DNA from: Spirochaetota bacterium
GTDB taxonomy: Bacteria; Spirochaetota; UBA4802; UBA5550
NCBI GenBank assembly: GCA_963663865.1
Contig: OY760686.1
Span: 285,670 to 349,669 of the forward strand
Direction: 5' to 3'
DNA: 64,000 bases
Under the pieces are notes generated by a model, which saw only the letters and a program-made list of their open reading frames with translations, searched no databases and was not told where the DNA came from. Shown one piece after another: positions 225 through 46,689 of the stretch (position 1 is the first letter of the stretch; each line of letters begins with the position of its first letter). The position numbers and the translations under genes are program-made.

Positions 225-253
225 TTGACAACAACAATCTGTGGTATTATATT
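225..253 (+). promoter_or_regulatory. sigma70-like promoter (TTGACA-17 nt-TATATT) for the HTH/ImmA pair
   Basis: TTGACA at 225-230, 17-nt spacer, TATATT at 248-253; AGGAGGA Shine-Dalgarno at 290-296 then ATG at 304. Confidence 0.45.
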
Positions 254-303
254 AACCACATTGTTTATTGATACAAATATTGAGGGAGAAGGAGGATAAA
301 TTT

Positions 304-666
304 ATGAACGCTTTTTCTGCTTTTTTTAAAGAAATGCGTCAAAAGAAGGGAATCAGCTTAAGGCAATTTTGTTTGGAAAATCATTTTGACCCAAGCAATA
401 CTTCAAAGATGGAGAGGGGACTAATAAATCCACCGAATGAAGAATTATTAAAAAAATACGCCTTAGCTCTCGAAATAAGCCTGTCATCACGAGAATGGGA
501 AACAATGAGAGATTTAGCTCATGTTGCTAGACAAACAATCCCACCAGAAGTGTTAACAGATGAGCAGGTCGCAGCCAGATTGCCTTTGTTTTTTAGAAGT
601 GCCCGAGGAGAAAAACTTACAGAAGAAGAGTTAAAAGAATTACTGAGCATTATTAAAAAATCATAA
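304..666 (+). CDS. XRE-family (Cro/CI-type) helix-turn-helix transcriptional regulator
   Basis: ORF track 268..666 uses TTG. ATG at 304 with strong SD is preferred. Segment KKGISLRQFCLENHFDPSNTSKMERG fits an HTH_XRE fold. Codon usage is AT-rich relative to neighbours. Confidence 0.7.
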   Translation: MNAFSAFFKEMRQKKGISLRQFCLENHFDPSNTSKMERGLINPPNEELLKKYALALEISLSSREWETMRDLAHVARQTIPPEVLTDEQVAARLPLFFRSARGEKLTEEELKELLSIIKKS

Positions 667-678
667 GAGGGATAATCT

Positions 679-1317
679 ATGGGTAATTACTATCTAAAAT
701 TTCAGCAATTAAAGGACAAAGCAAATGAATTGATATCAATGAATACAGAGTTATTTTCAAGAATACCCGTTGATATTGATTCTTTTGCTGAATTTTTAGG
801 TTTAACTATTATTCCATCCCCTGGGTTCAAAAACACTGTAGCGAGGGATGCTTTTTTATCTCCATGCACAAAAGAGATATATGTTGATCAAGATTTACTA
901 TTAAACACAAGATTAGAATGTAAATATAGATTTGCAATTTCTCACGAAATTGCCCATTATCATTTACACACAGACTATTATAACTCAATTATTACCAAGT
1001 CCCACTCTTGTGAAGATTGGATAAGGATTTATCAAAATATTCCGGAAGAAAATTTCAGCCTCTTTGAGTATCAGGCAAATGCTGTTGGGGCCTGTATATT
1101 AATCCCAGATCATCATCTTGATAATTACTTTGACGATACATTAAAACTTTTTGAAAAACAGATAACAAATGCCAAAACAGGCGGGATTGATAGAGATTCA
1201 TATTTAGAATATGTTATAGACGGAATAGCGAATAGGATTTCGTCAAAGTTTAATGTGTCTGTGCAAGCAATGACTTTGCGATTTAATGATTATAAGTATA
1301 AGAAAAGAATTCCATAA
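679..1317 (+). CDS. ImmA/IrrE-family zinc metallopeptidase
   Basis: HExxH motif in ISHEIAHYHLH; 212 aa; starts 13 nt after HTH stop with AGAGGG SD; classic HTH+ImmA two-gene module. Confidence 0.75.
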   Translation: MGNYYLKFQQLKDKANELISMNTELFSRIPVDIDSFAEFLGLTIIPSPGFKNTVARDAFLSPCTKEIYVDQDLLLNTRLECKYRFAISHEIAHYHLHTDYYNSIITKSHSCEDWIRIYQNIPEENFSLFEYQANAVGACILIPDHHLDNYFDDTLKLFEKQITNAKTGGIDRDSYLEYVIDGIANRISSKFNVSVQAMTLRFNDYKYKKRIP

Positions 1318-1674
1318 TCAATGTAATGAATCATTTATTTAGGAAGTAACTAATTTTCAAGCATTCTCCTATAATTCTACTGACGCCTTATTGAAAAGGA
1401 CAGGCCGAAATGAACATTATTGAACTGCGCTTTTTTTGACATCGTAACAGCTCAAGCCACACCAAACACGCATTATTGCGACTATGGCAAATTGTCAATT
1501 ACACCATTGTACTGCCATCGATGCCGCAGCCCCGTACTGCTTTTGTTAGATAATGATTCGACGAGCTTCCGTTAATAATCTCCTGAAGTCCACATGAGCT
1601 TCATCGCACTTTGACCATCAATATGCAACGAAGCTCACTTCGATGTAACATTGCCCGGCAAACCACCCACCCGG

Positions 1675-2745
1675 TTACTTCACCACTATCTGATCGGGAT
1701 CAAAGGAATCATATTCCTCACCGGCACTACTGTAATCTATATTCTGCCAGACTTCATTTTTAAAATAGCCCACAGATGCTTTATAGTATGGCATTTCAGT
1801 CCAGTCAGTCCACTCGCCTGAATAGCCCAGCACGTAGTAATCTTCACCACAGACAGACATTGACGTTATACGAAAGTTCTCTCCGTATGATGTCGAAAGC
1901 CCCTTCCACTGTCCGTTCACAAAGCAGCCAGCCTTTCTAACCTGATCGTACTGTACAGCAGCTACAACTGAACCGCCCTCCGTCACTCCTATACCTTTAA
2001 TGACGGCATACTCAATTGCCCCCTCTGGCGCAAGCTCAACCCACTCTCCGTTTTTCCAGTAACCGATAGATGAAATATCATTTTCATCCCAGGCGCTGCC
2101 CGCAAAATAAACATCACTGCCCTTTATACAGCTTGACATGACCTGCCCAGAGGACGCCCCGTTTGGAAGGGATAACTCATGAAGCTCCCCGTTTAGCCAG
2201 TATGCAGGTTTAGCATCGACCCAACCTCCAATATAAATATTATTGTCATCTATCTGTATTGTACAGGCAAATGTATCTCTGCCCATCAGTCTCACTGCAC
2301 TCTGATTTTCTCCAACAACATCAATCTGATATGCGACACCACCTGCTGTTGCAACAGCATATACATAAGAGTCCTTAACACTGAGATCCTGTACCCTCAG
2401 ATAATCTCGCGAAACCAGACTGTTCAGCCAGACAAATCCTTCAGGCCCTGAAAAGCCTCCATATTTGCGGCTATATAACCCCAGATATACGCTGGGGCCT
2501 TCAACGAAAAGGCACTCTGCACCCACTACATCAACATTCTCAGGATTAGGTATAACCGTCCATTCTCCGTTAATCTGGTATGCACCATTGCATTTTACGG
2601 TAAAACCTACCTCAGATATAATAGTACCCCCTATAATGATCCCCTTCACATCCTCCGCAGTCTGCTCAGGTAGATTTTCATCCTTTGTTCCATCTGAACA
2701 TGAAGCGAGGAACAAAAAAGCTGTTAACATATATTTGAAATTCAT
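1675..2745 (-). CDS. repeat-containing lipoprotein (beta-propeller-like aromatic repeats), function unknown
   Basis: Signal + lipobox MNFKYMLTAFLFLASC; recurring Y-x-NGEW-x-L units (YQINGEWTVI, YWLNGELHEL, YWKNGEWVEL, FVNGQWKGL, YFKNEVWQNI); 56 nt downstream of and co-directional with M4 peptidase. Confidence 0.6.
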   Translation of the reverse strand: MNFKYMLTAFLFLASCSDGTKDENLPEQTAEDVKGIIIGGTIISEVGFTVKCNGAYQINGEWTVIPNPENVDVVGAECLFVEGPSVYLGLYSRKYGGFSGPEGFVWLNSLVSRDYLRVQDLSVKDSYVYAVATAGGVAYQIDVVGENQSAVRLMGRDTFACTIQIDDNNIYIGGWVDAKPAYWLNGELHELSLPNGASSGQVMSSCIKGSDVYFAGSAWDENDISSIGYWKNGEWVELAPEGAIEYAVIKGIGVTEGGSVVAAVQYDQVRKAGCFVNGQWKGLSTSYGENFRITSMSVCGEDYYVLGYSGEWTDWTEMPYYKASVGYFKNEVWQNIDYSSAGEEYDSFDPDQIVVK

Positions 2746-2801
2746 TCAGGCCTCCTAAACCTCATATATCGATTTAAACTTTTCATAACCAAAAAGAATT
2801 A

Positions 2802-4658
2802 TCATAGAAAATTAATCCCGAACTCCCCTCCGGATGTGTTTATTTCAAAAGCTGGGCAGCAACCAACTGCAGCCCAGGCATCAGCAACAGAGAAAAAGCC
2901 GTTAAGATCAATCAAACCCGCTCTGTAGTATTCACAAGCAGCAAGAATCCACCCTCTTGCCGAATCAATAAAACAAGAATGGGGGGTGCAGTAATAGATA
3001 CAGGCCCTCATAGCGATTCTTCCGGCAGTTTGAACACCCAGTCCATTAACTGAATAGAATACCGGGCTCACTCCCTCTGGAACTCCATAATTATATCCCG
3101 TCCCCCCCTCGCTGAGAAGGTAGAAAGCATAAGTTTGAACAGTGCCCATTGAATAGGAATTTTGTGTATCCCAGTTTATTCCTTCATAAAACATCGCATA
3201 ACCGTTATCTTCCACTGGATTTCTAATATTCCTATATGGATTGCCTGATTCAGTACAGGAATCCTCACCAATATACCAGTCAAAATGACCAGCGATTCTG
3301 TCAGGACACCCAGTGCCATCAGGCTGATAGTAGTTCTCAACCATCAGAGAGAATATATCAGCATACGATTCATTTAATGCGTTTGGCTCACATCCCATCT
3401 TTGGATTTCCAGCAACACTATAATCTACTAATTGCGATGTAAAATTAATTATTGCATGCCCAAACTCATGTGCTATAATATCCAAAGCTACCTGGTCGGT
3501 CCTAGTACTCCCATCCCCTGCACCGAAAAGAAATGTTCCGGGAGGGAGTTTGTAATATTTATAATTGTAAGAAGAAAAGGCTTCGTAACATGCGGATTTT
3601 TTCCGTACACCTTCATGATCAACAAACAAAACAGCCGTTGCATATTTTGGAACTATTCCAGACTTTGAATTTGTATGATTAAAACTTTTCCTGCCAAGAA
3701 TGCTGTAGTTGTAATCCATTACTCTTGAAATATTGTACGCTGCTGAAATCTTATCTTCATCAAAGTTGCCATTTGTCGATGTAAAGATTGTTCCTGCCGT
3801 TAAATATTCAACATAATCCTCATAATAACTTGCCGGTCTACCTAGATAAAGATCATCATAACGGAGTTGATTTGAAGTTCTAATTTGCCACTTTCTGTAA
3901 TCAGGACCGATGCTTCTGAGAGAATAGCTTTCAGATCCAGGTATTATATAATCACCATAACCCCCACTGGTATACTCCACCCAGAAAGATCTGGTAGCGT
4001 TAAAGATTACAGTCCCTCCGCCCTCTCCTTCAAGGCAATTCCCTGAAATAGAACTTGTTTCAAAAACTTCTTCAGCGCCGGAAGTCATTTTAATAATACC
4101 TACAATTTCACCGTTATGCGCACTTGCGTGAATAGAAACAAACTCACCACTGCCATCTTGCATTACAGCGTTAATTTCATAGCAAAGGGTACCGCCCGCA
4201 ATCACAAGACGGGGTTCAATGTCATGCATCAAAACAGTTATCTCTTCGGAAGATTGCTCAATTACACTGACAACATCTTCTAAAGAAATTCTCGGCTCAG
4301 TTGAAAAATTTTCATCTTCAATAATTTTTCCATTAATAAGATAAATAGACCCATCCGGATTTCGGTGTTCAACAAGTTCTCCTCCAATGACCTTTATACC
4401 ATCGTAGAACTGCTGATATCTTGTGTGTGTACAGCCAAGAATGTCTTTTTCTGAAAATAATTTCTCATAATTAGAAAAACTGATTTCAGCAATATTTTGA
4501 ATCATGGTTGTATTTTTGAAGCCTGATTCAAGCATAGTTTTTTCTGTTATTGAACGTTTCGGACTTTTCATACTGCATAAACCCGTTGAAGATATCCAGA
4601 CATCAGTTTGAGAGCATGAAACATTTTTCCCATCTGCTGCCTTAGCAGAATCATTCAT
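2802..4658 (-). CDS. thermolysin-like M4 zinc metallopeptidase (body; N-terminal leader currently out of frame)
   Basis: AHEFGHAI (HExxH) followed by NESYADIFS (NExxSD) = M4 signature; FTP-like propeptide region (CTHTRYQQFYDGIKVIGGELVEH); N-terminus from ATG 4658 lacks signal peptide and SD. Confidence 0.8.
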   Translation of the reverse strand: MNDSAKAADGKNVSCSQTDVWISSTGLCSMKSPKRSITEKTMLESGFKNTTMIQNIAEISFSNYEKLFSEKDILGCTHTRYQQFYDGIKVIGGELVEHRNPDGSIYLINGKIIEDENFSTEPRISLEDVVSVIEQSSEEITVLMHDIEPRLVIAGGTLCYEINAVMQDGSGEFVSIHASAHNGEIVGIIKMTSGAEEVFETSSISGNCLEGEGGGTVIFNATRSFWVEYTSGGYGDYIIPGSESYSLRSIGPDYRKWQIRTSNQLRYDDLYLGRPASYYEDYVEYLTAGTIFTSTNGNFDEDKISAAYNISRVMDYNYSILGRKSFNHTNSKSGIVPKYATAVLFVDHEGVRKKSACYEAFSSYNYKYYKLPPGTFLFGAGDGSTRTDQVALDIIAHEFGHAIINFTSQLVDYSVAGNPKMGCEPNALNESYADIFSLMVENYYQPDGTGCPDRIAGHFDWYIGEDSCTESGNPYRNIRNPVEDNGYAMFYEGINWDTQNSYSMGTVQTYAFYLLSEGGTGYNYGVPEGVSPVFYSVNGLGVQTAGRIAMRACIYYCTPHSCFIDSARGWILAACEYYRAGLIDLNGFFSVADAWAAVGCCPAFEINTSGGEFGINFL

Positions 4659-4683
4659 AGATTGTAAGTCCTGACCTGGAGAA

Positions 4684-4752
4684 CTACAATTGGCGTGAGA
4701 GATAAGAAGCAGAAATATAATTATGAGACCTGAGACCTGAGACCTGAGACAT
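4684..4752 (-). other. SD-equipped ATG plus 22-codon out-of-frame leader ORF (MSQVSGLRSHNYISASYLSRQL*); becomes signal peptide of M4 peptidase if one 7-nt repeat unit is lost
   Basis: ATG (plus cat 4750-4752) preceded by GAGAGG 8 nt upstream; frame offset +1 relative to peptidase ORF; deletion of one GTCTCAG unit gives MSQVSGLIIIFLLLISHANCSSPGQDLQS-MNDSAK... Confidence 0.5.
4724..4751. repeat. heptanucleotide tandem repeat TGAGACC (3 perfect + 1 imperfect units; minus strand GTCTCAG)
   Basis: plus strand atgagacc tgagacc tgagacc tgagaca read directly at 4724-4751. Confidence 0.85.
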
Positions 4753-4789
4753 AAGCACTACCTCTCTGGTTAAACATTTTTATTAAGTT

Positions 4790-4817
4790 TATATATGATA
4801 TACAATTTAAAAGTCAA
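4790..4817 (-). promoter_or_regulatory. sigma70-like promoter for M4 peptidase-lipoprotein operon (TTGACT-16 nt-TATATA)
   Basis: minus-strand TTGACT (plus agtcaa 4812-4817), 16-nt spacer, TATATA (4790-4795); predicted TSS ~4783, ~30 nt before ATG 4752. Confidence 0.5.
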
Positions 4818-4989
4818 GATTTTTTCAGGCAATTACATTCTCTGCCTTTATCATCTCCATTTATGATATCCTCCAAACTCCAAACAGTAAAAACACAAAC
4901 ATTATTGCAAAAAAACACATGCCGTATAGAGTTGCATTAACATCAAAATTCAGAAAGAGGAAACGGGCCATAACGCCCGGATAAAAGCA

Positions 4990-5745
4990 ATGAAACTCAT
5001 CTCCTGGAACGTTAACGGCATACGGGCAGTACTTAAAAAGGGTTTTATGGACTTCATCGAAGAACACGACCCGGACATTCTCTGCCTTCAGGAAACCAAA
5101 GCCACCCCCGATCAGGTTGAGCTTGATCTTCCTCAGTACCCGTATAAGCTCTGGAACTCAGCCGAGAAAAAAGGGTATTCCGGCACGGCAGTTTTTTCCA
5201 AGGTGCAGCCTGTCACGACAGTAAACGGCATTAACACCCCTGAACACGATTCGGAAGGCCGAGTTATAACGGCCGAGTATCCTGATTTTTTTCTCGTGAA
5301 TGTCTACACGCCCAACTCCAAACGGGGCCTTGAGCGCCTGCCATACCGTCAGGAAGAGTGGGACCCGGCATTTCTTAATTACGTGAAGGCGCTGGAAAAA
5401 ACCAGGCCGGTCATCTTCTGCGGCGACCTCAATGTTGCACACAAAGAGATCGACCTTGCCCGCCCGGCTGACAACAGACGCAACGCCGGTTTCACCGACG
5501 AGGAGCGCGCAGGTTTCGACAACATTGTGAACGCCGGCTTTATCGACACCTTCCGGGAATTCGAAAAAGAAGGCGGACACTACTCGTGGTGGAGCTATAT
5601 GGCAAATGCCAGAGAGAAGAACATCGGATGGCGCATTGACTACTTTTGCGTCTCATCTGCTCTCAGGCCAAGACTGAAGGGGGCCTCAATTCTTGCCAAT
5701 ATCATGGGCTCAGACCACGCGCCGGTTGTTCTCGAAATAGAATAA
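4990..5745 (+). CDS. xth: exodeoxyribonuclease III (ExoIII/APE1 family AP endonuclease)
   Basis: [13 protein letters not shown]...LCLQETK N-terminus and C-terminal SDHAPV motif typical of ExoIII. Confidence 0.9.
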
Positions 5746-5816
5746 AAGCAGACTGATTACTGGAGAATATCATTGACAAGTTAGGAATAAATAACTTCCT
5801 TGTGTGATTATAACTT

Positions 5817-6956
5817 TTGCTTTACTTACAAATGTTATCTTATTATAGGAATTTCAATTTAATTATGATTAATCATATTATCAGGCTTTTAATCGTTGTT
5901 CTCATAATTGCAACAATCGGATTCAACAGTCAGCATACTGTTTTGGGAACATCGTTTGGATATTCCGAAACCAAACCTGCCGGCCATAAATTGGGGAGCA
6001 TTCAGAAAACCGCTGACGGCTCCCTTATTATTTCTACCGCCGATCTTGCGGCGCCTATTCGAGGATACGCAGGAAATATTCCGCTAAAAATTTACGTTAG
6101 AGACGGACTTATCACCCGGATTGAACCCCTCGAAAACTCTGAGACCCCTTCGTTCATGAAGTTCATTACGCGCAAGGGTTTTTTCGGCAGCTGGAATGGA
6201 CTCACACTTGAGGAAGCATCAACAAGAGAAGTGGATACCATAACCGGAGCCACAATGTCTACAGACGCCATCATACAGTCAGTCAGGCTCGCGTCGCGGC
6301 ACGCGCTCGGAAAAAACACATCAGAAACCGGCAGCCCCTTCTTTCAGTTGAAAACCCTTCTGATTGTGCTGGTCATTCTTGCCGGATTATGCCTGCCGCT
6401 CTTCTTTCGGTCGAAAAAGTACCGTACATTACAGCTTGCTCTGAACGTTGCCGTTCTTGGATTCTGGGGCGGCACTTTTGTTTCTCTTTCCATGCTGACA
6501 GGTTTTTTCAGCAGCCCGTTTAGTATTGCACTGTCAGCGATACCGGTGCTTCTGATAATAGCGGCCCTCATTATGCCGCTCGCCGGGAAAAGAAGTCATT
6601 ACTGTTTCTGGTTATGCCCCATGGGTTCGGCACAGGAACTTATTGGTAGAATCCCTGTCAAAAAAATCCGCCCATCAGCCAAGACCCTCAGAAAGCTGAC
6701 CCTGTTCAGGGAAGCGCTCTGGTTCACGCTTATGCTCATCATGCTGTGCGGTACCGGGTTGCAGATTATGGATTATGAAATTTTCCCGGCTTTTCTTTTC
6801 AGCTCTGCCTCCCTGCCCGTGCTGATTGCAGCTGGTATATTTCTGCTTCTTTCCCTTTTTATCAACAGGCCCTACTGTCGATTCGTCTGCCCCACGGGAA
6901 CGCTGTTAAAGCTTATTGACCGGGATAAGGAGAAAAAGACTTTGCCGCATGTATAA
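5817..6956 (+). CDS. polytopic membrane protein with FMN-binding domain and CxxCP motifs (NosR/NapH-like redox protein)
   Basis: FMN_bind-like DTITGATMSTDAI; several TM helices; CFWLCPMG and CRFVCPTG motifs; start uncertain (TTG 5817, ATG 5832 or 5865). Confidence 0.55.
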   Translation: MLYLQMLSYYRNFNLIMINHIIRLLIVVLIIATIGFNSQHTVLGTSFGYSETKPAGHKLGSIQKTADGSLIISTADLAAPIRGYAGNIPLKIYVRDGLITRIEPLENSETPSFMKFITRKGFFGSWNGLTLEEASTREVDTITGATMSTDAIIQSVRLASRHALGKNTSETGSPFFQLKTLLIVLVILAGLCLPLFFRSKKYRTLQLALNVAVLGFWGGTFVSLSMLTGFFSSPFSIALSAIPVLLIIAALIMPLAGKRSHYCFWLCPMGSAQELIGRIPVKKIRPSAKTLRKLTLFREALWFTLMLIMLCGTGLQIMDYEIFPAFLFSSASLPVLIAAGIFLLLSLFINRPYCRFVCPTGTLLKLIDRDKEKKTLPHV

Positions 6957-7032
6957 AACATGGTATAAATAAAAACTAAAGGAGGAACGTGCGAGCACTA
7001 CTCCCCGGAGAATAGATGCCGCCCCAAACATC

Positions 7033-7671
7033 ATGAATAAAACAAATCTGCTTACACTGCTTTTAGCCGCTGCTCTGCTCATTGTAACTGTCAGAGCAGC
7101 TCTTTTCAGGATGGAATCAAAAGAGGAAGAGAAAATGACAACTTCAAACAGCGAGTTAATAATCGAAGCAATAAAAGCAAGGACCAGCATAAGGTCATAC
7201 CAGAACAAAAAAATCGAACAGGAAAAGATTACTGAAATCCTTAAAGCTGCCATGTCCGCCCCTTCCGCCCGCAACAGGCAGCCCTGGCTCTTCATTGTCA
7301 TTGATGATAAAGCTGTCCTCAAAGAGCTTGGAGACGCGCTTCCGAATGCAGCTATGACAGCCAGTGCTCCCCTGGCGATAGCGGTGTGCGGCGACCTGTC
7401 AAAGACTCTTGAGGGCGAGTCATCTGAGTACTGGATACAGGACACATCTGCCGCCACAGAGAACCTTCTTCTGGCTGCAAGCGCGATGGGCCTTGGAGCT
7501 GTCTGGACTGGCGTTTATCCGGACAAAGGCAGAATAGGTACTCTTCGTAAGATACTCAACATACCTGAAAACATCATTCCTCTGAACCTTATTCCGATAG
7601 GCTATCCTGAGGGCAGCTCGAAACCCAAAAACAAATGGGATGAGGCCAACATACATAAAAACAGATGGTAA
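7033..7671 (+). CDS. nitroreductase-family flavoprotein with N-terminal hydrophobic/signal segment
   Basis: SIRSYQNKKI...SAPSARNRQPWLFIVI nitroreductase core motifs. Confidence 0.8.
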   Translation: MNKTNLLTLLLAAALLIVTVRAALFRMESKEEEKMTTSNSELIIEAIKARTSIRSYQNKKIEQEKITEILKAAMSAPSARNRQPWLFIVIDDKAVLKELGDALPNAAMTASAPLAIAVCGDLSKTLEGESSEYWIQDTSAATENLLLAASAMGLGAVWTGVYPDKGRIGTLRKILNIPENIIPLNLIPIGYPEGSSKPKNKWDEANIHKNRW

Positions 7672-8762
7672 CAGCCATGAATCCTTTTTTCTTCCAGTCA
7701 CCGGTGAAGGCGTTTATGGGGTATGAATTCGCTCCTCTTCTAAAGCAGCTCTCGGCCCCTTACAGCCGCATAGCTGTCATCACCGGCCAAACGTCTGCCG
7801 TAAAATCTGGATTTATCGACGCGATCAAACCCGCCCTAAAGGACAAAGACCTTCTCTATTTCAGCGAAATCGAAGAGAACCCGTCCATCGAAACCGTAAC
7901 GAGGGGCGCTGGAGAGGTCAGAAAATTTAACCCCGACTGTATCCTCGCGTTCGGCGGCGGCAGCCCTCTTGATGCGGCAAAGGCAATCGGCCTCATGTCG
8001 GCGAACCCGCTTCCCTTCGGGGAGCTCATGACTTCTGACGCGCCAATATCCCCCCCTCCGATAATAGCAGTCCCGGGAACCTGCGGCACCGGAAGCGAGA
8101 TGAACGCCTACTCCATCATAACCGACACGGCTAAAATGGACAAGCTCAACCTTACCAGAGAGAACATGTTCCCACGCTTCGCTGTTCTCGAACCCTGTTT
8201 TCTGAATTCCCTGAGCGACGATACGAGGTTCTCAACCCTGTTTGACGCCTTCTCTCATGCATTCGAAGGCTTTGTATCAAAACGTGCGAATCCCTTTTCC
8301 GATGCACTGGCCCTTCACGCCATTGAAATCATTTTTTCAATTATAGCCGATTACAGCAAAGATATGGGCTTCCACACAGAGCGAGCGCTCTACGCGTCAG
8401 CCGTAGCCGGTGCAGTCATACTGCATACGGGAACGACCATTCTTCACTCACTTGGATACTACCTGACCAACAGGAGGGGCGTTCATCACGGCAAGGCAAA
8501 CGCGCTCCTTCTCGAAGGCTATATGAGCATGCTGCAGGACGGAGGAGCGTCAAAACTCGGAAAAATCCGCGAAATGGAGCGCTCCGCAGGCATAGACATT
8601 TGCAGATTTATCAGGGATTTCTATGGGTCCTCGGGCCTTGAAGGCTACGTCGACGCAGACGACTTTGATGATTTCGCCTCGTACTCGTTGAGCAAATCAA
8701 ACGCAGCGTCTACACCGGTAGCGCTGTCACCCGAGGTTTTAAAAAAGCATTACGCTGATTAA
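7665..8762 (+). CDS. iron-containing alcohol dehydrogenase family protein
   Basis: GGGSPLDAAKAIG Fe-ADH signature; 7-nt overlap with upstream gene suggests operon with FMN-protein and nitroreductase. Confidence 0.8.
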   Translation: MVTAMNPFFFQSPVKAFMGYEFAPLLKQLSAPYSRIAVITGQTSAVKSGFIDAIKPALKDKDLLYFSEIEENPSIETVTRGAGEVRKFNPDCILAFGGGSPLDAAKAIGLMSANPLPFGELMTSDAPISPPPIIAVPGTCGTGSEMNAYSIITDTAKMDKLNLTRENMFPRFAVLEPCFLNSLSDDTRFSTLFDAFSHAFEGFVSKRANPFSDALALHAIEIIFSIIADYSKDMGFHTERALYASAVAGAVILHTGTTILHSLGYYLTNRRGVHHGKANALLLEGYMSMLQDGGASKLGKIREMERSAGIDICRFIRDFYGSSGLEGYVDADDFDDFASYSLSKSNAASTPVALSPEVLKKHYAD

Positions 8763-8802
8763 AACTTCTTTTCTGCGGGGGGATAATGACCTCAAAACCC
8801 CC

Positions 8803-11800
8803 TCAGCCTGTCTGCTCAATACGTGAACCTGTCTGCGACTTGACAACCCTGATCTGAGAGGGGATGCGGTTTCTCAACTCCTGAACATGCGAGATGATCC
8901 CTACCATTCGTCCGCAGCGCACTTCGTCAAGTATCGAAAGGGCCCGGTCAAGAGACGCCTCGTCAAGGGTCCCGAAACCCTCATCAATAAAGACAGAATC
9001 AAGCTCGATTTCACCCGCCCTTGACTGAATAACATCGGCCAACCCCAGAGAAAGCGAGATGGAAGCAAGAAACTTCTCGCCGCCGGAAAGGGACTTAACG
9101 CTGCGCGGGCGCCCGCTGAACGAGTCAAACACCTCAAGTTCAAGGCCAGCCTGAGAACGTCCATCCTCAATCTCAGTGCTCACTGACATTGAATAGCGCC
9201 CCTCAGTCATCCGGTTAAAGCGAAGGTTTGCAGCGGAGGCAACCTCGCTGAGGTAAGCGCTCAGCACGAAGTTCTGAAAGTTTATCCTCCTGGGGTTTTC
9301 GCCGTTGAGGTCTCCGGCAATTTCATCAATACGGACAAGTTCATCCTGAAGACGGGCGGACTCGGCAGAGACTCGAGTGTATTCCGTGATGAGCCCCTGC
9401 AGCCTGTCGATTCTGGAGGCCGCTTCACGCACCTCGCGATCAGCGTCTTTTTTCTTCAGGTTCAAGGCTTCAACTGCCTCTCCAAGAACGCACATAACAG
9501 GTTCAGTTTTACCCTTCAGGTTTTCTTCAGATTGATGAAGCCTTATTTCAGCCTCCCGCAGGCTGTCGCGGAAGCGCTGTACCTTCTCCTGCTGTTCTTT
9601 AATCACGCTCTCAGGCCGGAAGTACCGTTCAGCTTCAGACGCCGAGTCAAACCCTTCTTTAGAACTGCCTTTTTCCGCTTTCTCGACGGCCTTTTCAACC
9701 GACACCCTCAGCCTGGCTGCCGCTTCAGAGAGCTCCCCTTCCCGGCCCTGAATCCGCTTAAGCTCAAGTCCCGCATTGTTCAGCTCAGCATCTATACTTT
9801 TAATTTCAACACCGGCCGCTTTCACCTTTTCTTCTGTTTCCAGAATGCGGTTCTGGATATTGCCAATCCCCTCGAGGTCAGCTTCAAGAGCCAGAGCTGA
9901 GGCCTCGGCAGAAGCCAGCCGGCTTTCAGCCGAAGATATTTTATCCTTCAAAAGGCCAAGCCTGGCTGCAGACTCGTTCAGTTGCACATCCTTTTCATCA
10001 AGACGGTGTCTCGCATCGGCTGCCAGGGAGCTTTTCTCTTCAAGAGCTTCAACTTCATGCTTTAGCTTTTCGAGCTGAACCTTCGCCTCATCCAGCCTGT
10101 CATCTTCATCAAGACCAAGCGCAGCGACAGCACCGTCGACCTCCAGAATCAGCGACTCAGCCTTCCTGAGCCTTTCTTCCGCCGCGGCAGCCGCCGCGAC
10201 ACTGCCCGCTATATTCTCCCGGACTGCGGCAAGCCTTTCGTCGTCGGTAAAAACACCTGCTCCGTCAGCCGGTGCAGGATGCGACAGAGAGCCGCAGACC
10301 GGGCATGGCCTTCCTTCCTCAAGGCCGGCCGCCAGGCCGGCAGCCGCGGCGGCCTCCTTCCTCGCGGTTAGTGCAGCCTCATCGGACCTGTTGACATCCA
10401 ACACCTTATTAATACGCGCTATATCTTCCCTTGCCCCGTCAGCTTCCGAAACATAGGATTTCCTCTTATCAAGCGCTGTTTCCCGTGCGGCTAAGCTTTC
10501 AAACAGTTTTTCCACCTTCACAAGCTCGTTGCGCTTTTCCCGCATTTCCTCAGGCGGGACTGAATTCTGAGTTATCAAAGCTCTCAGGGAAGCTGCCTCG
10601 GCGCAAAGCGCCTCATACTCATGCGAAGCCTTATCTGACTCTCCTCTAACGCTTTCAGCAACCGCCTTAAGCTCTGCGGCCTCCTTTCGCTTCTCAATGA
10701 GCGCGGACGATTTTGCGAGGAGCGGCCTCAGCCTGCCGAGCTCTGAGTTCCCTTCCGAAACGGCTTTCTCCAGCTTCGGCCGACGGGCTGAGGCTGCATC
10801 TGCCGCCTCGGACCTCCTGACAGCGGCGGCCTTTTCCTTTTCAAGCTCTGCAAGCCTTGATTCTGTCTCCACAAGCTCCTTTTTCAGCCTTGCGGCATCT
10901 TCGATAACCGGCCTCAGTTTTTCAGCCCTGATAACCCTCTGCAGCGCTGTCTCAATCTTTTCTATTTCAGGAATTTTTTCTCTAAGAACAGCAACTGCGT
11001 CAGCTCTGGCCTTTTTTTCTTCAAAGGCATTCTGAAGCGACCTTCCCTTTTCAAGCTCTATGAGCGCCACATCGTATTTTAGCTGTATTTGCGCTGCGGC
11101 ATCTTCCTTTTCCTTCAGCTGAAGCTTCAGCCCTTCAAGCTCCTCAGCGCTCCTTTCCGGGTTCAACTCTGATCCAAGCCTCTTTAAATCCGCAAGCTTC
11201 GAGTTAAGTGCAGCGCGTCCAGAATTTCTGAGCTCTCTCGCGCGATTCGAAATTTCCTCATGCGCTCTGACCGGGAAGAGCTTCATGAGGATGGCCCTTT
11301 TCTGATCGGTTGGAGCCACAAGAAAATTCTGAAACTCTCCCTGCGGAAGAAGTACTATTCTCGAAAACTCATCCTTTGAAAGATGAAGAAGCCTTTCAAC
11401 CTCGGCGTTGATCTCCGTCACCTTCCCTTCCACGGGAGCCCAGCCTCCGTCTCTGAAACGGAAAAAGCTGACGTTCTCAGGCTGCTCAACGGTCCCGCTG
11501 CCCCGCCTGGCCGGCCTGTCATGTCTCGGGACTCTCTTTATCTTGTATCGCGATCCTCTGATAGCGAAAGTAAACTCGGAGAATGGCTCGCTGTATTCAG
11601 GCATGTACCCTGAAACCGCGGAAGCAGGGTTTCTGGTCCCTGTAAGCGAACCATAAAGGGCAAACAGAATCGCGTCAAAAACCGTCGTCTTCCCGGAGCC
11701 GGTAGGCCCTGTAATCAGGAAGAAGTCGGCTTCGTTTCTAAATGAAACCGTCTGTTCGGCAGAAAAGGGGCCGAATCGGCATACTCTCAGACACTCAGGC

Positions 11801-44952: not shown

Positions 44953-46689
44953 ATGAAGAACACGCCCCGTCGCCACTACCTGAAGCGGCACAGTCAGTAT
45001 ATTGAAAACCGCTTATCAGTAATAAAACAACTCCTTGATTCGCTTCATTCCCCGGAAAGAGACAACACACTTATAGACATCATGTCCTTTTTTATGTCAC
45101 ATAACACACTCCCAGTTTCAGCTGAAACACTCACTCCTGCAGCCCAAAGCATTTCTGAAATAAAGGAGCTGATTAAACGATGGGACATAGTTTCCAATGG
45201 AGATATATTGGGATACATTTATCAGAAATTAAAGTGCAGCGCCGGGAAAAAAAAGATAGGCCAATTCTTCACGCCTGGAGACATAGTCTCTCATTTAACT
45301 GAGAGTGCGATCAGAATCACAGAAAATCCCTCTTCTGTGATTCTTGATCCGGCATGCGGCTCAGGTCAATTTCTCATGAGCGCGTACATATTTCTTCATG
45401 AACAGCTTTCAACCTCACAACGTGAAAATCCAGAAACGATAATAAGTAAATATATATACGGTATCGACACCGACCCTGTTGCTGTTCAAATCTGTAAGTT
45501 CAATCTATCCAGAATTTCCGGGGTAGAAGAAAGCAAAATCAACATTGTTTGCTCAAATTTCCTTGGGGATGATAACTTAATAGAGGGTATAAAACCTGAC
45601 ATCATTATCGGAAACCCGCCCTGGGGAGGAATGCTCACAAAAGAAGAAAAGAAGCGTTTCAGGAACAAATTTATTTCTTCGCAGTCAGGGATAAACACTT
45701 TCACACTTTTTCTCGAACAAGCATTCAGAATAACAAACGGAAACGGCATAGTTGCTTTTCTAATCCCTGAGGCATATCTAAACATCAAAGCACACAGAGA
45801 ATCGCGGAAGTTCGTTCTCAAGCACGCATCTATTAAAGAGATAGCACTATGGGGCGAAAGGTTCAAGGGCGTTTTTGCCCCAGCGGCTTCTATAATAGCA
45901 AAAAAAGAAAGTAACCAGTCAATTATATCACGAAACATAGTTTGCATCAAGGACACAAAAGATACATTCCATCAGACAGCCTCCCGGCTTGTCCCTCAGG
46001 ATTCATTCAAAAAAACTCCAGACAATATTTTTAACATAAACTATTCCAGAAAATGCGTGAATATTATTGAAACCATAAGCGATAACGCAGGGCTTACTCT
46101 TAAAAACAGATCTGTTTTTTTTCTCGGAATAGTCAGCGGAGATAATACGAGACACATAAGCCCCACCAAAACCCAGAAACACATGGACCCCATACTTATT
46201 GGCAAGGATTTATCAAAATACCATATCAATTTCAGCGGCCATTATTTTCACTACAACCCGGAAGACCTTCAGCAGGTAGCACCACAACATTTGTACCAGC
46301 AGAAGAACAAGGTTCTGTACAGGTTCATTGGCAAGAAACTGACTTTCGCCATTGACCGTTCCGGATATTACACTCTTAACAACATCAACGGATTTATTCC
46401 TTCGATTGAAGAGCTCAATACTGAAACAATTGTCTCATTATTAAACTCAGACCTTATACAATACTATTACGAGAATAATTTTTTTACAGTGAAGGTTCTT
46501 AAGGGAAACCTGGAGAGGCTCCCTTTAAAACGTATATCCCGGGAGAATCAGGAAAAGATTAAAACATACTATTCTGATCTCGAAAATGGCTGCGGAAACG
46601 CCGACTATTTAAAAGCCAATATTGATGATATAATTTTTCATGAGTATGGAATAAAAGACAGAGAGGCATATCTTACTGCAGCAGTTTAG
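44953..46689 (+). CDS. gamma-class N6-adenine DNA methyltransferase (Eco57I/TaqI-like) with C-terminal target-recognition region; no adjacent nuclease
   Basis: motif X GQFFTP, motif I DPACGSGQFL, motif IV IIGNPPWG; ~300-aa C-terminal TRD-like region. Confidence 0.85.
   Translation: MKNTPRRHYLKRHSQYIENRLSVIKQLLDSLHSPERDNTLIDIMSFFMSHNTLPVSAETLTPAAQSISEIKELIKRWDIVSNGDILGYIYQKLKCSAGKKKIGQFFTPGDIVSHLTESAIRITENPSSVILDPACGSGQFLMSAYIFLHEQLSTSQRENPETIISKYIYGIDTDPVAVQICKFNLSRISGVEESKINIVCSNFLGDDNLIEGIKPDIIIGNPPWGGMLTKEEKKRFRNKFISSQSGINTFTLFLEQAFRITNGNGIVAFLIPEAYLNIKAHRESRKFVLKHASIKEIALWGERFKGVFAPAASIIAKKESNQSIISRNIVCIKDTKDTFHQTASRLVPQDSFKKTPDNIFNINYSRKCVNIIETISDNAGLTLKNRSVFFLGIVSGDNTRHISPTKTQKHMDPILIGKDLSKYHINFSGHYFHYNPEDLQQVAPQHLYQQKNKVLYRFIGKKLTFAIDRSGYYTLNNINGFIPSIEELNTETIVSLLNSDLIQYYYENNFFTVKVLKGNLERLPLKRISRENQEKIKTYYSDLENGCGNADYLKANIDDIIFHEYGIKDREAYLTAAV

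Follow-up and report, generated by a model that had tools for sequence, protein, structure and literature searches.

Results

A peptidase gene separated from its proposed start codon by a heptanucleotide repeat

We analysed a stretch of 64,000 nucleotides, called the window hereafter, from contig OY760686.1 (positions 285,670 to 349,669, assembly GCA_963663865.1) of a Spirochaetota bacterium. On its minus strand lies a gene for an M4 metallopeptidase whose intact body includes an FTP propeptide. It is preceded by the coding sequence of a hydrophobic export leader, a tract of heptanucleotide repeats and an ATG equipped with a Shine-Dalgarno (SD) sequence, and it is followed by a lipoprotein gene (Table 1). 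A sequence-only reading of the locus had seen in the tract a candidate ON/OFF switch operated by slipped strands, and the comparison of genomes presented below supports that proposal.

Table 1 Features of the peptidase locus and positions of the partner-lipoprotein genes
Feature	Position	Strand	Basis and remarks
-35-like hexamer TTGACT	window 4812-4817	minus	read from sequence; consensus match only, absent from promoter-scan list
-10-like hexamer TATATA	window 4790-4795	minus	16 nt past TTGACT; conserved last T missing
Shine-Dalgarno sequence GAGAGG	window 4761-4766	minus	8 nt ahead of ATG 4752
SD-equipped ATG, proposed true peptidase start	window 4750-4752	minus	sequence and in-silico translation
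Heptanucleotide repeat, (TCTCAGG)x3 + TCTCAT	window 4724-4750	minus	Tandem Repeats Finder, Markov simulations, lineage-B comparison
22-codon out-of-frame ORF from ATG 4752 (OFF product, n=3)	window 4684-4752	minus	stop TAG 4686-4684
Export leader LIIIFLLLISHANC, hydrophobic core then Cys	window 4686-4727	minus	peptidase frame; no start codon of its own in the n=3 allele
First ATG in the peptidase frame; P0001 (618 aa) begins here	window 4656-4658	minus	downstream of the leader; product without export signal
M4 metallopeptidase body with FTP propeptide, intact	window 2802-4724	minus	Pfam; HEFGH and NESYAD; thermolysin alignment; orthologue P0049
Partner lipoprotein, 356 aa, GYWKNGEW-type repeats	window 1675-2745	minus	downstream of the peptidase; own AGGAGG SD; canonical lipobox FLFLASC
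Partner lipoprotein	L001 7007-8074
Partner lipoprotein	L003 7007-8038
Partner lipoprotein	L004 1831-2886
Partner lipoprotein	L004 6770-7837
Partner lipoprotein	L087 5310-6365
Partner lipoprotein	L087 7001-8068

Three Pfam families are recognized above their gathering thresholds in the peptidase: Peptidase_M4 with 34.7 bits (cut-off 22.4), Peptidase_M4_C with 64.6 (24.4) and FTP with 52.8 (21). The zinc motif HEXXH occurs within AHEFGHAI, and the glutamate ligand follows downstream within ALNESYADIF, as is characteristic of M4 enzymes. The protein aligns to thermolysin (PDB 5a3y) with an E-value of 1.2e-13. One segment is aligned weakly by phmmer: here the 'gvhinsgii' of thermolysin stands opposite 'ysmgtvq' (around residues 520-535 of the orthologue P0049), without the His231 of the GGVHxNSG motif. 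The paralogues described below likewise have no histidine at the position of thermolysin His231, with a sequence resembling S-M-G-T-V-Q in its place. Either this segment is misaligned, or the proteins would belong to an M4 subfamily devoid of the transition-state histidine.

The start region is built as the sequence-only reading described it, with the SD sequence GAGAGG, ATG 4752 and the repeat in succession. The three perfect units, (TCTCAGG)x3, occupy positions 4749-4729 of the minus strand directly after the ATG, and TCTCAT comes next. Tandem Repeats Finder reports a period of 7 with 3.9 copies, 100% matches and a score of 54 at 4724-4750, which makes the tract the top tandem repeat of the window. 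When the window was simulated 300 times with a first-order Markov model, the longest tract of period 7 measured 15 nt on average and 21 nt at most; the observed 27 nt therefore go beyond chance. The unit, as read from the sequence, is free of stop codons in all frames. A perfect repeat whose unit is not a multiple of three thus separates the start codon from the gene body, which is the anatomy of a contingency locus.

SD cores precede 13 of the 32 long open reading frames (ORFs) of the window, versus 10% of random positions, so SD-led initiation is in use in this organism, if not at every gene. The TTGACT/TATATA pair further upstream is promoter-like, and may act as the promoter of the gene.

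Copy number sets the reading frame

From ATG 4752, the window allele, with its three units (n=3), translates to MSQVSGLRSHNYISASYLSRQL followed by a stop. The peptidase frame, in turn, stays open over positions 4757-2802, with the sequence ...LIIIFLLLISHANCSSPGQDLQS-MNDSAKA..., and the earliest ATG, GTG or TTG in it is at 4658. When one unit is removed or two are added, ATG 4752 is joined to the leader and to the 618-residue body in a protein of 647 or 654 residues. Translated in silico for every n from 0 to 12, the gene gives products of 647, 654, 661 and 668 residues at n=2, 5, 8 and 11, and of only 5-43 residues otherwise. Translation thus bears out both that the short ORF is out of frame with the peptidase and that one unit less or two more repair it.

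Since the unit of 7 nt is not divisible by 3, the number of units decides in which frame the leader is entered, and its change toggles between a full-length and a truncated product. At n = 0 mod 3 the reading stops at TAG 4686-4684, after 22 codons in the window (n=3) and 36 codons in a second lineage described below (lineage B, n=9); at n = 1 mod 3 it stops right after the tract, at TAA in the window and at TGA in lineage B. In the ON phase, every three extra units add one more SQVSGLR heptapeptide, with its single arginine, to the n-region of the signal. The window allele is phase-OFF for export, and ON requires n = 2 mod 3.

The annotated product, P0001, begins at ATG 4658, past the leader. 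The highest Kyte-Doolittle mean over 10 residues is 3.56 in the leader versus 1.06 at the annotated N-terminus, and the leader is homologous to those of P0053 and of paralogue 3. That ATG 4658 yields a protein without a signal peptide is thus upheld, but the statement that it has no convincing SD was too strong, since AGGA lies 10 nt upstream.

To classify the leader, we combined hydropathy with a lipobox pattern of the PROSITE PS51257 type, [LIVMFWSTAG](2)-[LIVMFYSTAGCQ]-[AGS]-C. Paralogue 2 (AISTSC), paralogue 3 (ATTTSC) and the downstream lipoprotein (FLASC) satisfy it; ISHAN|C of the window, with asparagine at -1 and histidine at -3, fails it, and the window copy was for that reason not filed as a lipoprotein. 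Of the signal or lipoprotein-type leader announced earlier, the hydrophobic export leader stands, but the canonical lipobox is lacking. Lipoboxes of spirochaetes are reported to be looser than the PROSITE pattern (SpLip). Cleavage by signal peptidase I at SHA|N is an alternative for this leader. On its sequence, then, the window copy would carry an export leader whose assignment to lipoproteins is not secure.

The same cassette carries nine units in a second lineage

The 90% cluster of the window peptidase led to a second genome, here lineage B, in which the locus (L002) lies on the 1.8-Mb contig ctg38490l of ENA assembly ERZ21862645. Its orthologue, P0049, has 640 residues and begins with MIIFLLLISHANCSS... 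The tract of L002 (4933-5001) counts 9 units versus 3 in the window and leaves a gap of 42 nt in the alignment, while the flanks differ by one single-nucleotide polymorphism (SNP) in about 400 nt, an ATA changed to ATG directly after the tract. Relatives with nearly identical flanks thus differ in length by whole 7-nt steps, as expected of a slipping repeat; the same holds for paralogue 3, with 4 and 12 units. In addition, the 651-codon peptidase frame, leader included, is intact in both lineages, and the leader is found as a coding signal peptide in P0049 as well as in the paralogues. The worry that three to four units are too short to slip is eased by the alleles of 9 and 12 units.

Could the copy number be an error of assembly? 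A separate assembly of the window strain, prone to indels (L085, ERZ21862383), matches the window without a single mismatch and with 56 gaps of one base in 10.4 kb; its tract, too, counts three units. This agreement between two assemblies of one strain argues against an artefact. Moreover, the lengths by which the genomes differ, 42 and 56 nt, are whole multiples of 7, unlike the 1-nt homopolymer errors of L085.

The window and L002 differ by about 0.4% over positions ~250-5250, a cassette of some 5 kb that is ~99.6% identical, versus about 8% over the neighbouring genes at 5250-9700 (~92% identical). By this disparity, the cassette looks like one exchanged recently between the lineages, through homologous recombination or horizontal transfer. 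A change of six units within the time of 0.4% point divergence is, judging from this comparison, the behaviour expected of a hypermutable repeat. A further block without SNPs between the lineages is found at window 7750-7999.

Sister peptidase genes carry a different heptamer at the same site

The organism possesses further M4 peptidase genes, 33-39% identical to that of the window. They share its layout, in which an SD-equipped ATG is followed directly by a heptamer tract and then by a hydrophobic core; two unit sequences are used in the family. TTGAC(A/T) is found upstream of the SD-ATG in the paralogues too, and their SD, GGAGG, lies 5 nt ahead of the ATG.

In paralogue 3 of L004, TTGACA, GGAGG and the ATG are followed by (ATTCCAG)x12 and by IFHFLFISIILLLAATTTSCGS..., a canonical lipoprotein signal. 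L004 was assigned to the window-like lineage through identical proteins, P0178 and P0002, recorded on the 3.16-Mb contig. This allele is in frame, its translated tract reading MIPDSRFQ... The syntenic locus L087, on the same contig as L002, has identical flanks with (ATTCCAG)x4, a 56-nt gap, and its ATG is out of frame; the gene is called there as a 622-residue ORF starting from an internal methionine past the signal peptide, a symptom that it shares with P0001. The two tracts lie at L004 3384-3470 and L087 3316-3347. Paralogue 3 is hence known in one in-frame allele (n=12), which is broken by an insertion sequence (IS), and in one out-of-frame allele (n=4).

Paralogue 2 (L001 and L003) has in both lineages GGAGG, 5 nt and an ATG followed by ATTCCCG ATTCCCA ATTCTTC, that is, two units and a decayed third. 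One more unit would restore MIPDSRFPILRFSF...; the restored protein reads MIPDSRFPILRFSFISIILLLTAISTSC..., matching paralogue 3. As found, the only in-frame start of paralogue 2 is an ATG without SD 19 nt upstream (L001 and L003, 5001-5003), where paralogue 3 has AAAATC. This ATG, together with the post-tract ATG of lineage B, may represent point mutations that lock expression ON.

Across about 125 kb from the two lineages (the window, L001-L004 and L087), no other repeat with a unit of 4-9 nt reaches at least 3 copies, except CATTA x3.2. Two different units of period 7 occupy the same site in genes that are 33-39% identical, which argues that it is the frame-shifting property that has been maintained.

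The locus of paralogue 3 is a tandem array, rearranged between L087 (3414-8068) and L004 (1831-7837). Its order in L087 is the repeat-bearing peptidase (622 residues, mosaic, 76% identical to P0051), a 351-residue lipoprotein, a C-terminal peptidase remnant and a 355-residue lipoprotein; in L004 it is the 351-residue lipoprotein, the repeat-bearing peptidase with its IS and the 355-residue lipoprotein. The arrangement suggests recombination or gene conversion among the copies.

A metagenome scan for ATG(ATTCCAG)3 returned 22 contigs (L088-L109), which we rejected as homologues: their flanks are unrelated, and they have neither the GGAGG-ATG context nor a peptidase. On these contigs, (GATTCCA)n arrays of 3-6 units often have degenerate copies next to them (IWNLES or DSRF in translation), and (GATTCCA)n may be a widespread class of heptamer repeats.

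Alternative ways of reading the tract

With the paralogues at hand, it can be asked whether the ribosome or the polymerase crosses the frame by itself. Programmed +1 ribosomal frameshifting or transcriptional slippage, which would make expression constitutive, is to be considered together with the assembly error discussed above. Of the four OFF alleles, three (n=3 and n=9 of the window gene, counted as paralogue 1, and n=4 of paralogue 3) call for the same +1 shift, and the tract offers AGG codons and SD-like AGGT motifs. Paralogue 2, to the contrary, requires the opposite shift. Between 4752 and 4684 we read no known slippery motif of the +1 or -1 kind, and Rfam finds no element in the window; transcriptional slippage, for its part, requires homopolymers, not heptamers. 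We regard this whole group of explanations as barely credible.

Another possibility concerns the start codon itself. The real start could lie after the tract, at the ATG of lineage B (ATA at 4724-4722 in the window), leaving the SD-ATG and the repeat as an upstream ORF (uORF) whose phase modulates translation, either by overlapping or occluding the start or through ATGA coupling. In the window such a start would have been lost, by a change of ATG to ATA, or would be a weak ATA or ATT start. Indeed, the CTC ATA ATT of the window is CTC ATG ATT in L002, and gene callers begin the 640-residue P0049 there. At n = 1 mod 3 the uORF of L002 would end in TCATGA, overlapping the post-tract ATG, and every unit contains AGGT, a partial SD, found 4 nt ahead of that ATG. 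The extra ATG of paralogue 2, in frame and without SD, can be cited in the same sense. Such a start, though, would leave MIIFLLLISHANC as a signal of 13 residues without an n-region, and the window lineage has no canonical start at that place. In the paralogues with canonical signals, the SD-ATG is the sole plausible start and the tract is translated. The uORF is to our mind quite improbable, and it would still be phase variation by the same repeat, with another read-out alone.

A probable translational switch for an exported peptidase

We consider the tract to be a hypermutable simple-sequence repeat that switches the translation of an exported M4 metallopeptidase ON and OFF by phase variation, and we put the probability of this reading at roughly 72%. 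Simple-sequence-repeat-mediated translational phase variation is the most likely account of the locus by its anatomy, its frame logic and the unit-step polymorphism between strains.

Transcription would probably start just downstream of TTGACT/TATATA; ribosomes would then initiate at the SD-equipped ATG 4752 and read through (TCTCAGG)n. With n = 2 mod 3, this ATG would be joined to the leader, the cysteine and the protease body (ON), the tract itself encoding the n-region. With n = 0 mod 3 an early TAG, and with n = 1 mod 3 a stop immediately past the tract, would turn the gene OFF. From the OFF allele of the window, nothing more than a cytoplasmic protein lacking the leader, begun at ATG 4658, could be made. 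At replication, slipped-strand mispairing would change n in 7-nt steps, and the exported protease would be made in the ON phase only. The ATTCCAG version would control the sister peptidase genes in the same manner, so that members of the family, each a protease with its partner lipoprotein, may be switched individually and at random. Unit-step changes did occur between the lineages compared here; their frequency and reversibility we infer.

Several observations weigh against the switch. The promoter had been described as near-consensus: a TTGACT-16-TATATA arrangement is present at 4817 to 4790, but by sigma-70 criteria (-35 TTGACA, -10 TATAAT, a spacer of 16-18 nt, A2 and T6 of the -10) the conserved T6 is missing, and a consensus promoter scan of the window does not list the site. 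Three units make a short tract. The product of an n=2 allele would have a leader without positive charge, and that leader fails the lipobox pattern, as said above. Only two alleles of the window gene are known, n=3 and n=9, both OFF and none ON; under random phase the chance of this is about 4/9, which is weak evidence either way. The expression of P0049 may be independent of the tract, through the in-frame ATG that an A-to-G change creates right after it in lineage B (L002 5001-5003, window 4722-4724; MIIFLLL...). In the peptidase gene, the two lineages differ at 7 of 1,923 nt, with 5 non-synonymous and 2 synonymous changes, too few to test. The partner lipoprotein of lineage B is shortened from 356 to 308 residues by a TCA to TAA change (L002 ~7900, window ~1820); in the window lineage, paralogue 2 is split into 522 and 110 residues by a GGA to TGA nonsense mutation (L001 6565-6567); and paralogue 3 of L004 is interrupted by an IS with an rve transposase (L004 3750-5000). 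Such irreversible lesions fit relaxed selection or decay.

The same lesions, to which the peptidase remnant of L087 can be added, are what one would cite for a decaying pseudogene, in which the 5' frameshift is one more fixed defect, the repeat a functionless by-product and its length differences neutral. Both alleles of the window gene being out of frame, and the five non-synonymous versus two synonymous differences, would agree with it. Yet the 651-codon frame with its leader has remained intact in both lineages, and one allele of a paralogue (n=12) is in frame. Perfect repeats of two unrelated units at the same position of three or four paralogues only 33-39% identical are hard to obtain without selection, while the perfect tracts of 9 and 12 units indicate ongoing slippage. 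Besides, a mixture of ON, OFF and dead copies is usual in the contingency families that have been studied; neuO, for instance, is OFF in 65.6% of genomes (PMC13001214). We hold decay to be an unlikely explanation of the tract, and prefer the phase-variable switch.

The partner lipoprotein and neighbouring features

At all the loci that we examined, the gene after the peptidase encodes a lipoprotein of about 350 residues in which (G)YW(K)NGEW motifs recur. No Pfam family matches it and, among ~5.8 billion proteins searched, no relative from outside this organism exceeds 26% identity; from these searches it is an orphan partner of the peptidase. In the window, the 56-nt gap between the two genes (2746-2801) contains no terminator-like site, and co-transcription of the lipoprotein with the peptidase is for this reason probable. 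The earlier suggestion of a shared promoter may thus be right, with the correction that the strong AGGAGG SD of the lipoprotein would have it translated independently.

Beyond the lipoprotein, the window encodes an XRE-HTH protein (268-666) paired with an IrrE/ImmA Peptidase_M78 protein (679-1317). In lineage B, a serpin gene (L002 9992-11320) is found about 2 kb past the partner lipoprotein, beyond what corresponds to the low end of the window, and the XRE/IrrE pair lies between the two. A gene for a protease inhibitor near the cassette may be relevant to its function.

On the minus strand upstream of the promoter-like site (window 4858-4885), TTTGGAG is repeated 2.1 times (Tandem Repeats Finder, 4871-4885) and ends in GGAGGA. 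Eight nucleotides after the latter, ATG 4860 opens a mini-ORF of 11 codons, MEMIKAENVIA and a stop, which is kept in L002, as is the whole block.

Within every TCTCAGG unit there is a GGTCTC sequence (window 4725-4744), the site of Eco31I and BsaI; GTCTC is that of Alw26I. Elsewhere in the window (44953-46689) lies a gene for an N6-adenine methyltransferase whose specificity domain is TaqI_C. We dropped a link between the repeat and restriction-modification: GGTCTC is not depleted in the window (22 observed versus 21.1 expected), and the methyltransferase resembles the Alw26I/Eco31I/Esp3I family weakly, with 54.5 bits versus a cut-off of 353.5. The coincidence of the two is probably fortuitous.

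The organism and wider searches

The window carries gyrB, gyrA, mnmG, yidC and recN. Nothing else in the protein collection exceeds 78% identity to its GyrB, whose named relatives are metagenome-assembled genomes labelled Spirochaetota, such as 'Spirochaetae bacterium HGW-Spirochaetae-1'. A protein search with the window peptidase gave identities above 36% solely in this organism's own copies. A scan of GTDB genomes, a collection that does not contain the species, found nothing closer than 29%, and the exact flank with its repeat had zero matches in the JGI metagenomes, a collection from which the species is missing too. Rfam at its gathering thresholds and a tRNA scan detected no structured RNA or frameshift element in the window.

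Discussion

The closest functional analogue of this locus is neuO, the O-acetyltransferase gene of prophage CUS-3 in E. coli K1, whose 5' coding region contains (AAGACTC)n and which is switched ON by repeat numbers divisible by 3 (PMC13001214). Its repeats number from 3 to 53 (PMC13001214). In both systems a 7-nt unit directly follows the start codon, one phase of three is ON, the tract is translated as heptapeptides when ON and copy numbers vary widely, those found here being 3 and 9, and 4 and 12. They differ in their product, which is a cytoplasmic acetyltransferase in one and an exported M4 peptidase in the other, as well as in unit sequence and phylum. Here, moreover, the tract lies within the n-region of a signal peptide and a whole paralogous family carries such tracts. 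Switching of neuO was measured experimentally, whereas here we deduce it from the comparison of genomes.

The opa genes of Neisseria also have their repeat, (CTCTT)n, in the coding region of the leader peptide of a multi-copy family (PMC3960869). As may be the case here, the copies of this surface-protein family switch independently by slipped-strand mispairing (PMC3960869; bioRxiv 10.1101/2020.09.16.300947). The opa pentamer encodes the hydrophobic core, whereas our heptamer encodes a polar, arginine-containing n-region upstream of it; and opa products are host-adhesion beta-barrels of an obligate human pathogen, in contrast to the protease of an uncultured spirochaete.

The sialidase gene nanH3 of Gardnerella has a poly-C tract by its signal peptide, and its OFF alleles are annotated without that peptide (bioRxiv 10.1101/2020.09.16.300947). 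There as here, the product is an exported hydrolase and the gene caller starts past the tract, creating the artefact met in P0001 and in the 622-residue ORF of L087. The tract of nanH3 is a homopolymer placed after the signal peptide, whereas here a heptamer stands ahead of the hydrophobic core.

Repeat-based phase variation also exists within Spirochaetota. In Treponema pallidum, poly-G tracts upstream of the tpr genes are homopolymers of the promoter that act on transcription, in a host-restricted pathogen; our repeats, in contrast, are coding heptamers that would act on the translational frame.

The mechanism itself is thus already known and classical; what is new is the organism, the proteins targeted, the use of heptamer units and a design common to the family. 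Nearly all documented cases of phase variation by repeats come from host-adapted pathogens, and homopolymers, tetramers and pentamers account for most of them. In the present case, a heptanucleotide switch would serve a whole family of genes in an uncultured lineage of Spirochaetota, the repeat building the n-region of a signal peptide. The targets of the switch would be exported metalloproteases, a class seldom listed among phase-variable genes, and the family would provide a case of contingency loci in environmental bacteria. There is also a consequence for annotation: when the true start is out of phase, such proteases are called as leaderless cytoplasmic proteins, like P0001 and the 622-residue ORF of L087, or are given odd starts.

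In a wider and more tentative reading, which we ourselves find rather doubtful, a probably free-living spirochaete would run cassettes of M4 protease and lipoprotein as independently switching contingency genes, the tract serving at the same time as a rheostat of export. The n-region would then be made of SQVSGLR or IPDSRFQ repeats, with one arginine per three units, and the in-phase lengths would tune the efficiency of export. Silencing by the repeats, apparent capture of start codons, irreversible knock-outs and the recent transfer of a cassette between lineages that are ~92% identical together lead to a reading in terms of fluctuating selection. If it is true, extracellular proteolysis or surface targets would be under strong fluctuating selection outside the classical host-pathogen setting, possibly caused by cheating on a public good, by phages or by predators.

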